Sequence record: PZ091942.1 | Source: a phage | Length of the DNA: 64,000 bases | Direction: 5' to 3' (one strand) | Shown: in pieces, positions 3,994 to 43,707 of the stretch | How the letters are laid out: every line of letters begins with the position of its first letter | How positions within the stretch are numbered: position 1 is the stretch's first letter | Program-made: the position numbers and the translations under genes | The notes under the pieces: model-generated | The model's database searches: none | The model's input: only the letters and a program-made list of their open reading frames with translations | What the model was told of the DNA's origin: nothing

Positions 3994-4069
3994 GCACCCT
4001 TAGCTCAATGGATAGAGCAGCGACCTTCTAAGTCGTTGGTTACAGGTTCGAGTCCTGTAGGGTGCACCA
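3994..4069 (+). tRNA. tRNA-Arg (anticodon UCU)
   Basis: Cloverleaf read by eye: acceptor GCACCCT/AGGGTGC, D-arm GCTC-AATGGATA-GAGC, anticodon stem GCGAC/GTCGT with loop CTTCTAA, T-arm ACAGG-TTCGAGT-CCTGT, encoded CCA. Confidence 0.85.
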
Positions 4070-11461: not shown

Positions 11462-12558
11462 CAACCGTAGCACAAGTTTTTGGATACCGTAATGCTCGTC
11501 TGGCTGAGCCGCACCCAAGCATCGCTTTTCAGTGTGGTATTGGCATCGAGCTGGAAGTTGAAGGAACCTCTGAAATTGATGCAGACCTTTGGGTTTGTAC
11601 TGAAGATGGTTCACTTCGTGATGGCTGTGAGATGGTTTGCGCACGGCCTTACAACGGTGTAGAATTGCTTCGTGCTATTAACAATCTGAGTGAAGCAGTA
11701 CAAGACTCTGAAGCTGAAGGGACTTGGCGCTGCTCTACTCATGTTCATATGGATATGCGTGACGCTGATAGTAACATCCTGAAGAAAGTAATTCTTGGAT
11801 GGACGTTCTATGAAAAGATGATGTTCAAATGTTCTGGATACCATCGCTATCGTAGCAACTTCTGTCCTGCCTTTGCTGTTGTTCAAGCACAGGTAATGAA
11901 TGCTTCCGCAGCGTTCAACCGAGATGGTGAAGCCTTCTTCAACACTCTTGTTAATAGCTGGGACAAGTACACCTCCCTTAACCTATTACCTCTGGCTCAG
12001 TTTGGTTCTGTTGAGTTTCGTATCTCAGAGCCGAAGTGGAAGAAAAGCCAACTCCTGAATCTGGTCAACCGCTTCTTGGTTCTCAAGAAACTGGCTGTTG
12101 AATATGCAGATTTGGACAATGAAGCATACGTTGAGAAACTGAATGAGCTTCGCTTCGCTCCTATGATTCAGTATCTACCTCTGGACTACACGCCTAATGA
12201 TAATGATCTTACTGAAGGTTATCGTTTGGCTCGTGACATTCTGTTCTGTCGTGAACGTTCGGTTACTCTGGTTGGTCGTGTTCGTGTACAACAGACTGGC
12301 CCTGATGGTGAAGTCCTTATCAACTTGCGTGATATGGGTGACTTCTATGGTTTCTTGGGATATGTACGGGGTAATGCCAACTCTGTTTACGAAGAGATCA
12401 TGACATATTACACCCCTCAGATTGAAAACACTCGAATCGCAACGGTTCGTGAAATTCGTCACATGTTTACTTTGATGCGTGAATCAGGTAGCAGTGATGA
12501 TAACGTCACTGGTTATATTCCAGACCATCTGGAAATGCAATTAGAACGACTGCTGTAA
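11458..12558 (+). CDS. GS-like amidoligase (carboxylate-amine ligase family, putative)
   Basis: GIGIELEVEG ... TEDGSLRDGCE ... STHVHMDMRD pattern resembles glutamine-synthetase-fold amidoligases. Confidence 0.5.
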   Translation: MTTVAQVFGYRNARLAEPHPSIAFQCGIGIELEVEGTSEIDADLWVCTEDGSLRDGCEMVCARPYNGVELLRAINNLSEAVQDSEAEGTWRCSTHVHMDMRDADSNILKKVILGWTFYEKMMFKCSGYHRYRSNFCPAFAVVQAQVMNASAAFNRDGEAFFNTLVNSWDKYTSLNLLPLAQFGSVEFRISEPKWKKSQLLNLVNRFLVLKKLAVEYADLDNEAYVEKLNELRFAPMIQYLPLDYTPNDNDLTEGYRLARDILFCRERSVTLVGRVRVQQTGPDGEVLINLRDMGDFYGFLGYVRGNANSVYEEIMTYYTPQIENTRIATVREIRHMFTLMRESGSSDDNVTGYIPDHLEMQLERLL

Positions 12559-12635
12559 CACAATGGGCGCTCTGATAAAGGGCGCATTTAAAGGTTAATT
12601 AGATGAAAGGGTTTACCCTTCAGGTGGATTAGAAA

Positions 12636-14669
12636 ATTTGTGGTATCGTATTAGCTGGGGGCAACATGACCTCCACAGACTTAGACGTATTCAACCAGCT
12701 TCTGTATGCCGGAGTCTTCCGTGGTCAGCACTCAACTGGTGTGTTCGGTCAGCGTAAAAGTGATGCAAGAGTGTTTTCTTATAAAGAAGCACTTCCTTCT
12801 TATGCTTTCATGCTTCAGACAGAGTACACGAATATTACTAAGGGGCTTACGAACTATGTAGTTCCTCCAGCGTGGATTGTTGGTCATAGCCGACATGCCA
12901 CTCGTGGCGCTGTCAATGCTCGAAATGCTCACCCGTTCTCTCATGGTGACATTACTCTGGTTCACAATGGTACATTGATGGACCAAGAGCTGTTACCTGA
13001 CCATAAGAACTTCGAAGTTGATAGCGAAAACATCTGTCATTCAATCAACACCATTGGTGCAGCAGAGACTATCCAGAAGTTGGATGGTGCGTTCACTTTA
13101 ATCTGGCATGATGCCAAAGACAATACTCTGCATATCATTCGTAACGATGAACGTCCTTTCCATCTGGCCCGTTGTGGTCTGGATTGGTTTGGTGCTTCTG
13201 AAGAAGATATGTTGATGTGGATTCTTAATCGTTCCAAGTCACACAAGAACCGTATCAATGATCACTTTGAATGTAAAGTGGGAACTGAATACATCTTTGA
13301 TTTGTCTGGCAACCGTATGACTCTGACTCAAGAGGTGGAGCACAAGCTTCCGGTTTTTACGGTAACGAGTCGCTGGGGCGGCTATTACTCGAACTCCTCT
13401 CTATATCAGAACCAACAGACAAACAAATCAAGCAGCAGCACAAGCGACATTTACGGAAACAAAGACGACAAGCCCGGCGTGACAAGCGGGGACATTCGCC
13501 GTCGTAAAGCGATTGAAGATCAGAATAAACTGGCTGCCGATCGTGGTCTTCCATATCGTCGTGATGGTCGTGTGGATATCATCCCTCACGAGTTCCATGC
13601 TTACAACAACACTGACCGTGGTAAGATGGTTGGTTATATTTATGATGATGCTGCTCAAGAATATGTTGAGGGTGATGTTCATAATGTAGCCAAGAGTGAG
13701 TACTTGAAGGCTCTCGAAAACCCAAAGGTAGTGTATCGCGGGACAGTTGCTTGTATCTCCGAAGTGGACAGTATGATTCGCCTCGTACTCACTTCAGGGC
13801 TGTTTGTTGATGCTACCGATAAGGAGCCTCAAAGCACTACCGCTGATTTTGATGATGATATCCCTTTTGATTTAGAAGACTCCTTCATCACTAAGAATGG
13901 TGTGGAAGTCACTCGTAAGTTCTGGGAATCTCATTCTCATGGTGATTGTGGCGGTTGTGACAAGCACATTGAATGGAAAGATGCTAAGAAAGCTGTGTTC
14001 GCTTACCAAGCATATTGGCATCCGGCCTGTTTCGAAGCATTGTCCAAACCATCGGAAGAAGATGAAGACATCCCTTTAGGTGTCTGTGCTGTGTGTGGCA
14101 ATGTTAAAACTGATTTCGAGTTTGATAACGAAATGAGTAAACTTCGTGGTGAAGATATTTGTTATGTCTGTGCCAAAGAAATCAAAGACAAAGTGACTAA
14201 CACTACATTGTCTGAAGGTTACATTTGGACTAAAGCAGTTGACACAACTAACCCACGCCGCCCTGAAGTAGCAGTTCGTGTTGATCAGCGTATGCTTAGC
14301 CGGATGATCGTAATGGTTAGCTCAGCTAAGCGTTCTGGAGACATTGAACTGTCTGATGTTCCTAATTCTTATTTGGAGAAACGTGGTGGTGATACTTATG
14401 CCATCTCTGTTTATGGTCCAAAGAATGCCCCAAAGGAGGTGCCCGCTGAGAAAGCGGAAACATTTCCAGAAAAACAAACAACTCTCCGAAAAACAGTTGT
14501 CAGTTACGATGGACAGCGAACAGCTGAGTTCACAAAAGCCCTCTGGACTTCAATTGGGTTTTGTGCAGTCTGTTATAAACAAATTCCGTGGCGTGATGCA
14601 GAAGTTTGCTCACTAAACAAAGAAAACAGGGTGATCTGTAATTCAGATTACTGTAAAGGTAAACATTAA
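12636..14669 (+). CDS. class II (Ntn) glutamine amidotransferase domain protein with Cys-rich C-terminal domain; probable AUU start
   Basis: GHSRHATRG..NAHPF..HNG motifs; in-frame CGIV lies upstream of track ATG 12666 with no stop between; AGGTGG 8 nt upstream of ATT 12636; C-terminal CxxC pairs. Confidence 0.6.
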   Translation: MCGIVLAGGNMTSTDLDVFNQLLYAGVFRGQHSTGVFGQRKSDARVFSYKEALPSYAFMLQTEYTNITKGLTNYVVPPAWIVGHSRHATRGAVNARNAHPFSHGDITLVHNGTLMDQELLPDHKNFEVDSENICHSINTIGAAETIQKLDGAFTLIWHDAKDNTLHIIRNDERPFHLARCGLDWFGASEEDMLMWILNRSKSHKNRINDHFECKVGTEYIFDLSGNRMTLTQEVEHKLPVFTVTSRWGGYYSNSSLYQNQQTNKSSSSTSDIYGNKDDKPGVTSGDIRRRKAIEDQNKLAADRGLPYRRDGRVDIIPHEFHAYNNTDRGKMVGYIYDDAAQEYVEGDVHNVAKSEYLKALENPKVVYRGTVACISEVDSMIRLVLTSGLFVDATDKEPQSTTADFDDDIPFDLEDSFITKNGVEVTRKFWESHSHGDCGGCDKHIEWKDAKKAVFAYQAYWHPACFEALSKPSEEDEDIPLGVCAVCGNVKTDFEFDNEMSKLRGEDICYVCAKEIKDKVTNTTLSEGYIWTKAVDTTNPRRPEVAVRVDQRMLSRMIVMVSSAKRSGDIELSDVPNSYLEKRGGDTYAISVYGPKNAPKEVPAEKAETFPEKQTTLRKTVVSYDGQRTAEFTKALWTSIGFCAVCYKQIPWRDAEVCSLNKENRVICNSDYCKGKH

Positions 14670-28331: not shown

Positions 28332-28402
28332 GGCTGGCAACTAAAGCCACCCTCTCATAATGTATACTCCTTAGTGTACACTGATATGTTAAGGAGTTGT
28401 AA

Positions 28403-34415: not shown

Positions 34416-34424
34416 TATACATTA
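34416..34424 (-). promoter_or_regulatory. TAATGTATA promoter-like motif (minus strand)
   Basis: Exact reverse-complement copy of the motif in the 34207-34554 intergenic region; no ORF start downstream. Confidence 0.25.
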
Positions 34425-34486: not shown

Positions 34487-34495
34487 TAATGTATA
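34487..34495 (+). promoter_or_regulatory. TAATGTATA promoter-like motif
   Basis: Exact motif 59 nt upstream of SSB ATG; TATAAT at about 34460-34465 nearby. Confidence 0.35.
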
Positions 34496-43698: not shown

Positions 43699-43707
43699 TA
43701 TACATTA
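43699..43707 (-). promoter_or_regulatory. TAATGTATA promoter-like motif (minus strand)
   Basis: Exact motif 36 nt upstream of ATG at 43662. Confidence 0.3.

Follow-up and report, generated by a model that had tools for sequence, protein, structure and literature searches.

Annotated bacterial start codons are about 82% ATG, 14% GTG and 4% TTG, and AUU, AUC and AUA initiate translation in E. coli at about 1-2% of the AUG rate, with methionine incorporated at the N-terminus; the confirmed AUU starts in E. coli are infC and pcnB only (bioRxiv 10.1101/063800). The start codon of infC is AUU or AUC in all bacteria, and sensitivity to initiation factor IF3 is far greater for AUU than for AUA (PMC5499595). 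The AUU start of pcnB is thought to limit the amount of an enzyme that could be harmful (bioRxiv 10.1101/063800). Here, we analyze a 64,000-nucleotide stretch of phage DNA (sequence record PZ091942.1, hereafter the window), in which the gene of a class II glutamine amidotransferase (GATase) has an ATT codon directly before the codon of its catalytic cysteine, and comparison with its relatives points to this ATT as the initiation codon.

AUU initiation itself is already known, and the ATT start of phage phiEco32 was annotated once, in 2008. A literature search returned no paper tying an amidotransferase to an AUU start, and no paper combining phiEco32, 'start codon' and ATT, early phage descriptions being outside its reach. 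Two features appear to be undescribed so far: AUU/AUC starts recur throughout one family of phage enzymes, and they are coupled to a hairpin that adjoins the Shine-Dalgarno (SD) sequence.

The initiation region and the encoded enzyme

The window reads ...CAGGTGGAT TAG AAA ATT TGT GGT ATC GTA TTA GCT GGG GGC AAC ATG... at the beginning of the gene. On the + strand, the SD sequence AGGTGG (12622-12627) lies 8 nt before the ATT, and is followed by an in-frame TAG stop two codons ahead of the start (12630-12632), an AAA codon between the TAG and the ATT (12633-12635), the ATT that would be decoded as fMet and then removed (12636-12638), and the TGT of the catalytic N-terminal nucleophile, Cys1 of the mature enzyme (12639-12641). 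The sequence-only reading had proposed an AUU start from these elements, and its coordinates for the TAG, for the ATT preceding TGT and for AGGTGG 8 nt upstream were exact when the sequence was re-read; from the stop to the Cys there is AAA and ATT alone, and thus no ATG, GTG or TTG. As it also stated, the open reading frame (ORF) lister calls the gene from ATG 12666, a choice that drops nine codons (CGIVLAGGN; 12639-12665, +). The corrected coding sequence (CDS) is 12636-14669 (+), which comprises 677 codons plus the stop and encodes a class II GATase domain at about residues 1-205, followed by a long Cys-rich C-terminal region.

The domain scores 55 bits against Pfam GATase_6 (cut-off 27) and 25.8 bits against GATase_7 (cut-off 25). 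In an alignment of 11 diverse homologues, which was also the source of the profile compared with structures, the invariant residues include Cys1, Gly2, R28-G29, R85, T88, N110-G111 and D128. Against the glutaminase domain of E. coli GlmS (1xff), the profile gives an E value of 1.9e-12 and places residue 1 onto residue 1, with the R-G, R..T.G, N-G and D columns in register; PurF (1ecb) behaves likewise, with Cys1 aligned. The earlier identification of CGIV as the class II amidotransferase nucleophile motif is thereby borne out. Further, the invariant residues occupy the columns matching the glutamine site of GlmS (Arg26-Gly27, Arg73, Thr76, Asn98-Gly99 and Asp123), and positions 2-196 of the NCBIfam GlmS model align with residues 1-190 of the Cys-first protein. 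Because the profile, the NCBIfam register and the invariant catalytic residues agree, the protein is identified from its sequence as an N-terminal nucleophile (Ntn, class II) amidotransferase that would require Cys 12639 as its first residue.

Evidence for initiation at ATT 12636

The window comes from a phiEco32-like podophage of E. coli (Gordonclarkvirinae), with 98.7% identity to ECBP2 over a test kilobase and DNA-level matches to 97 phage records. The relatives that might have lacked the upstream CGIV retain it. In particular, CTG or CTC stands at the site of the window's ATG 12666 in relatives from Kuravirus and Nieuwekanaalvirus, which keep TAG AAA ATT TGT GGN ATC GTA. Moreover, the differences in codons 12639-12665 among 13 distinct phiEco32-like sequences fall mainly on third positions and are for the most part synonymous, which indicates that these codons are translated. 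As there are relatives without ATG 12666 and the codons upstream of it are under coding constraint, the gene would have to start at ATT 12636. The CDS phi32_83 in the original phiEco32 GenBank record begins on the ATT equivalent to 12636, and therefore its annotators came to the same conclusion.

More distant homologues show the same arrangement. Aeromonas phage BUCT695, which belongs to another family and encodes a protein that is 56% identical, has TAG AAA ATT TGT as in the window, and differs from it at only 2 positions from the hairpin described below through the Cys codon. The homologous locus L121 reads TAG TAA ATT TGC, where ATT is the sole codon from the stop to the Cys; L021 reads TAA ... 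CAG GAG GAT TAG AAA ATT TGT, and a start codon is missing between its two stops; L020 reads ATG TAA ACA GGG ATT CCA TTA CAG GAG GAT TAT AAA ATT TGT, with no canonical start from the upstream stop to the Cys. At the position of 12630-12632, the TAG is thus kept in the phiEco32-likes, BUCT695 and L021, is a TAT in L020 and is part of TAG TAA in L121. Across these sequences, the comparison supports AUU initiation as the only reading that fits all relatives. The sequence-only reading had offered either an AUU start or another recoding event; the former gains support from the comparison and the latter is not needed.

Start codons across the family

The codon preceding the catalytic Cys was tallied in the best-scoring 80 of 206 viral-contig hits from a profile-based scan, whose query set includes the ATT lineage. 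It is ATG in 59 homologues, ATT in 14, ATC in 5 and TTG in 1, and GTG and ATA do not occur; the remaining case, IMG/VR contig L049, is ambiguous, having two consecutive Cys codons (ATG TGC TGC GGN, M-C-C-G). ATT and ATC together therefore account for 19 of the 80. Each of the 19 has an SD at normal spacing, which is nearly always of the GGAG type and 6-9 nt upstream. In nearly all of them the stretch from the in-frame stop to the Cys is free of canonical starts, and at many the in-frame stop overlaps the SD. On a crude neighbor-joining (NJ) tree, ATT/ATC appears in at least 10 separate places among ATG lineages. Contigs binned into bacterial genome assemblies add a further 3 ATT, 1 GTG and 1 TTG, and the cultured relatives LUZ24, PaP3, Proteus P59 and Salmonella SE131 start with ATG. 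When the window was scanned for further genes with ATT or ATC starts, there was no other convincing case.

Two loci, L020 and L126, carry a minimal start-stop pair (ATG TAA or ATG TGA) in frame, a few codons before the ATT, which may be a coincidence or a further leader element.

A hairpin adjoining the SD sequence

The elements found beyond those of the sequence-only reading are a hairpin adjoining the SD, a mini-ORF from an in-frame ATG at 12603 and an invariant 55-nt block. The predicted fold of the hairpin is UGAA(A)GGG-UUUA-CCCUUCA (12604-12622, +), and the SD begins on its final base. To compare its occurrence across the family, the unique initiation regions were used, with the phiEco32-likes merged into one, giving 15 ATT/ATC and 55 ATG members. 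A hairpin was counted when a stem of at least 5 bp ended 14-20 nt ahead of the start codon, where it adjoins the SD; the controls were the ATG members, dinucleotide shuffles and the segment 40 nt further upstream.

Such a hairpin is present in 13 of the 15 ATT/ATC lineages and in 15 of the 55 ATG lineages (Fisher p = 4.7e-5). The mean folding energy from -45 to -11 is -5.95 kcal/mol for ATT/ATC versus -2.35 kcal/mol for ATG (p = 3e-6), with equal GC content in the two groups; relative to shuffled sequences, the mean z is -1.06 for ATT/ATC (p = 5e-6) and +0.14 for ATG, with a between-group p of 1e-5. In the segment 40 nt further upstream, folding is no different between the groups (p = 0.14). 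The association does not depend on base composition and is confined to the position next to the SD. Further, mean pairing between the SD and the anti-SD is -8.1 kcal/mol for ATT/ATC versus -7.0 kcal/mol for ATG (p = 0.011).

The stems are unrelated by lineage. For example, they read GAACCT-GTT-AGGTTC, AGACTAA-TTTA-TTAGTCT, GTAGCC-GTT-GGCTAC and ACTTAC-AAAAC-GTAAGT in other lineages and AAGGG-TTTA-CCCTT in the window, and L121 has a hairpin of the window type with a compensated extra pair (AAGGGA-UUUA-UCCCUU). By these comparisons, the conserved unit is the hairpin, the SD, the spacer, the ATT or ATC, and UGY.

The invariant leader block

A 55-nt leader block (12589-12643, +) is invariant in 13 of 13 distinct phiEco32-like sequences from three genera, compared to an identity of only about 78-89% in the flanking coding DNA. 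It follows a terminator-like hairpin after the amidoligase gene (12567-12585, +; GCGCUCU-GAUAA-AGGGCGC, then AUUU), which appears in both the minimum free energy and centroid folds; relatives differ in its stem in a compensatory manner (GGGCGCTC...GGGCGC versus GGGTGCCTC...GGGGCAC), and the record of phage 4E8 annotates a terminator at this position. The RNA structure of 12556-12700 as a whole is not significant (z = -1.0), and the robust structures are the two local hairpins only.

Several causes of the block's invariance were considered and rejected. A promoter does not account for it: there is no sigma-70-like site in 12450-12750, and the promoter consensus for the phiEco32 sigma factor gp36, tAATGTAtA (PMC8948821), has no good match near 12600, where AAAGGTTAA agrees at 5 of 9 positions by eye. 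Neither does a known RNA family, as the Rfam hits are sub-threshold chance hits only, nor a repeated regulatory element, as the hairpin and SD sequence is single-copy in the window even with 3 mismatches allowed. An exact-pattern scan of IMG/VR for the leader recovered 5 close relatives only. A sequence-specific partner of the block, either a protein or a part of the ribosome, is possible.

Directly past the upstream terminator, at 12589-12602 (TAAAGGTTAATTAG), the window reads TTTAAAGGTTAA and BUCT695 reads TTTAAATGTAATA. At the same place, Grimontviridae-like relatives with ATG starts (L006, L008, L009, L030, L031 and L038-L042) have a conserved TTTAAATGTAA(A/T) motif. The motif at 12589-12602 is unlike the gp36 consensus and unlike the 7-11 late promoter. 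Elsewhere in the window, exact matches to the gp36 consensus, TAATGTATA, are located at 28358-28366 (+), 34416-34424 (-), 34487-34495 (+) and 43699-43707 (-), and these four are candidate middle or late promoters.

Alternative explanations

The mini-ORF encodes MKGFTLQVD* (ATG AAA GGG TTT ACC CTT CAG GTG GAT TAG; 12603-12632, +), lies in the frame of the GATase gene with AAGG 8 nt upstream of it, stops 3 nt short of the ATT and persists in the phiEco32-likes and BUCT695. These features would suit termination-reinitiation, whereby ribosomes translate the mini-ORF, stop at the TAG and restart at the AUU 3 nt on, so that coupled ribosomes would be the main users of the AUU. However, neither L021 nor L020 has a translatable mini-ORF ahead of its ATT, L121 has CTG in place of the mini-ORF's ATG while its hairpin and ATT persist, and other ATT/ATC lineages are without such a mini-ORF. 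Within the lineages that retain it, both BUCT695 substitutions alter the mini-ORF peptide, and the T and G of its ATG are paired in the predicted hairpin stem. Reinitiation is thus improbable, and by these comparisons would at best be an add-on particular to the phiEco32 lineage; the mini-ORF is probably incidental, a by-product of the stem sequence in that lineage. The same ATG could instead begin a longer protein, as it shares the GATase frame and the TAG is conserved in several lineages: readthrough of TAG 12630 would yield a 12-residue propeptide, removed autocatalytically as in B. subtilis PurF, whose propeptide has a similar length of 11 residues. This is extremely unlikely. The window has no suppressor tRNA, its sole tRNA gene being tRNA-Arg(TCT) at 3994-4069 (+); L121 has consecutive stops (TAG TAA) and no ATG, L021 has no start codon between its two in-frame stops, and the in-frame stops that overlap the SD at many ATT/ATC loci speak against it as well.

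If translation began at Met 12666 or beyond it, as the ORF lister and 9 of 10 deposited records have it, the protein would be Cys-less and have a non-glutaminase role. This is very unlikely, considering that Kuravirus and Nieuwekanaalvirus have CTG or CTC instead of ATG 12666 and have their annotated starts 26-114 codons on, inside the conserved domain, and that coding constraint extends upstream of 12666, with Cys1-Gly2 invariant across the family. One G-to-T change would suffice to convert ATG to ATT, by sequencing error or by a recent inactivating mutation in an incipient pseudogene, but the ORF is intact over 677 codons, and the identical ATT is shared by 13 distinct phiEco32-like sequences, which come from separate isolates and from metagenomes, by BUCT695 and by numerous unrelated lineages known from metagenomes; by these sequences, this explanation has next to no chance of being right and is already refuted. 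Two further forms of recoding were discarded. A -1 frameshift would use the heptamer AAATTTG (12634-12640), which does not fit the register of the GATase frame, and a bypass of the T4 gene 60 type is unlikely, as no GAT landing codon follows.

Proposed mechanism and its standing

Initiation on the AUU is very likely to proceed as follows. AGGUGG (12622-12627), with its 8-nt A-rich spacer, would place the 30S subunit; the initiator fMet-tRNA would pair with AUU 12636; and deformylase and methionine aminopeptidase would strip the methionine, so that Cys 12639 becomes residue 1 and is exposed as the nucleophile. The weak start has the look of a selected trait rather than of a defect: it is conserved in three genera and one other family, recurs in about a fifth of the sampled lineages, and occurs together with an SD stronger than average and a hairpin. 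By analogy with infC, its purpose is most likely to hold translation at a low level under the control of IF3. Together with the strong SD, the hairpin may keep such a start usable; it could serve as a stabilizer of the 30S-mRNA complex or as an operator for a regulator. The anatomy, its conservation and recurrence, and the link of hairpins to ATT/ATC are read from the sequences, whereas we infer AUU initiation, methionine removal, IF3 dependence and the role of the hairpin.

It is also conceivable, and in our view somewhat doubtful, that the hairpin, a strong SD, a spacer of 7-9 nt and an AUU or AUC form a dedicated, repeatedly evolved initiation module. Stacked on the SD-antiSD helix, or docked beside it, on the platform of the 30S subunit, the hairpin of such a module would keep usable a start codon that IF3 intrinsically rejects. 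If so, synthesis of the N-terminal-Cys enzyme would track the ratio of IF3 to ribosomes in the infected cell, and the phage genes would join infC and pcnB as a third natural class of AUU/AUC starts, which would be the first class in phages and would have a defined RNA partner acting in cis.

Several points weigh against initiation on a selected, IF3-gated AUU and against its coupling to the hairpin. The BUCT695 SD, AGGCGG, is weaker, and at two of the ATT/ATC loci (L063 and L064) canonical start codons lie in frame 8-13 codons upstream and could give rise to a propeptide. Nine peptides of the GATase protein in SU10 proteomics indicate that it is made during infection (PMC4281155), and the search space comprised annotated ORFs only. 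The ATT/ATC frequency of about 20-25% may be inflated by the sampling of the best 80 of 206 hits to a query set with the ATT lineage in it, and the count of independent origins is uncertain, given the long branches of the NJ tree and look-alike initiation regions in distant branches. Likewise, the association between the hairpin and ATT/ATC may be partly inherited. The invariance of the 55-nt block exceeds what an SD, a hairpin of arbitrary sequence and a start codon would need. IF3 gating is proposed by analogy with infC only.

Gene neighborhood and deposited annotations

The gene cluster consists of a COOH-NH2 ligase, a hypothetical gene, an Amidoligase_2 gene, the GATase, two small ORFs and an ATP-grasp enzyme. 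In a passage of PMC10580990, Iyer et al. (2009) are cited as having treated this phage system and proposed cell-wall modification. The C-terminal region of the GATase, about 470 residues (window 13250-14669), has no Pfam or NCBIfam family match. Its several CxxC pairs, among them CGGCDKH...HPAC, CAVCGN...CYVCAKE and CAVCYKQ...CNSDYC, suggest zinc-ribbon-like modules.

Among 10 phiEco32-like records inspected, 9 truncate the GATase by 10-114 codons and that of phiEco32 itself starts at the ATT. Callers limited to ATG, GTG and TTG clip the gene in most deposited genomes; the domain loses its catalytic Cys and as much as half of its length, and databases thus carry crippled family members. Further, a GlmS-type name (L-glutamine-D-fructose-6-phosphate aminotransferase) is attached to the protein in ECBP2, KBNP1711, Bas86-90, LAh_9, LUZ24, PaP3 and other records. 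This product name is not justified: a Pfam search shows no SIS domain in the protein, and no PRTase or synthetase partner domains either, and its NCBIfam glmS score of 33-40 bits is far under the equivalog cut-offs of 381-418. Identity with GlmS, whose SIS isomerase domains are missing here, was therefore rejected.

Further observations concern particular records. In ECBP2 and PaP3, a note on similarity to the B. subtilis enzyme of that GlmS-type name sits on the adjacent amidoligase gene. In Pseudomonas phage Bjorn (NC_042103), the gene has a normal ATG-TGC start at locus position 301 and the deposited CDS runs from 337, 12 codons late, losing the catalytic Cys despite the ATG. In Escherichia phage 172-1 (NC_028903), tblastn matches the N-terminal domain in two pieces, which suggests a frameshift or an indel in that copy.

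Comparison with known systems

GlmS, PurF and AsnB share with the phage GATase a domain in which Cys1, Arg-Gly, Asn-Gly and Asp are in register and from which the initiator methionine must be removed. Unlike them, the phage protein has no SIS, PRTase or synthetase domains, carries a Cys-rich C-terminus and starts with ATT and not ATG. The propeptide of B. subtilis PurF is another route to an N-terminal Cys, one that needs an open frame from an upstream canonical start; for the GATase this route was rejected, as the TAG two codons upstream blocks the frame, and the same applies to L121 and L021.

The T4/RB69 gp43 operator resembles the GATase leader in being a small hairpin upstream of the ribosome binding site of a phage gene (PMC3014915). 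There, however, the binding protein is known, whereas the GATase hairpin is known from sequence alone. Across lineages, the position and pairing of the GATase hairpin are conserved and its sequence is not, while within the phiEco32-likes it is invariant; the divergence of the stems between lineages makes it more likely that, in the family at large, the hairpin acts through its structure on the ribosome than that its sequence is specifically recognized. The phages phiEco32, ECBP2 and SU10 offer a natural, tractable E. coli system for how non-canonical starts become usable, and why.

Among genes with AUU starts, pcnB, which encodes poly(A) polymerase I, is similar in that its start codons alternate among orthologues (bioRxiv 10.1101/063800), and it differs in being a host gene with no particular N-terminal residue required. 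Like the GATase, infC has a conserved AUU or AUC, never AUA, with a functional SD, kept over many lineages (PMC5499595), and the presence of this infC-like pattern across lineages would imply selection for a start codon discriminated by IF3. The two systems differ in their products and in their universality: infC encodes an initiation factor with an autoregulatory loop and its AUU/AUC is universal, whereas in the GATase family ATG alternates with ATT and ATC, and a hairpin adjoins the ATT/ATC starts.

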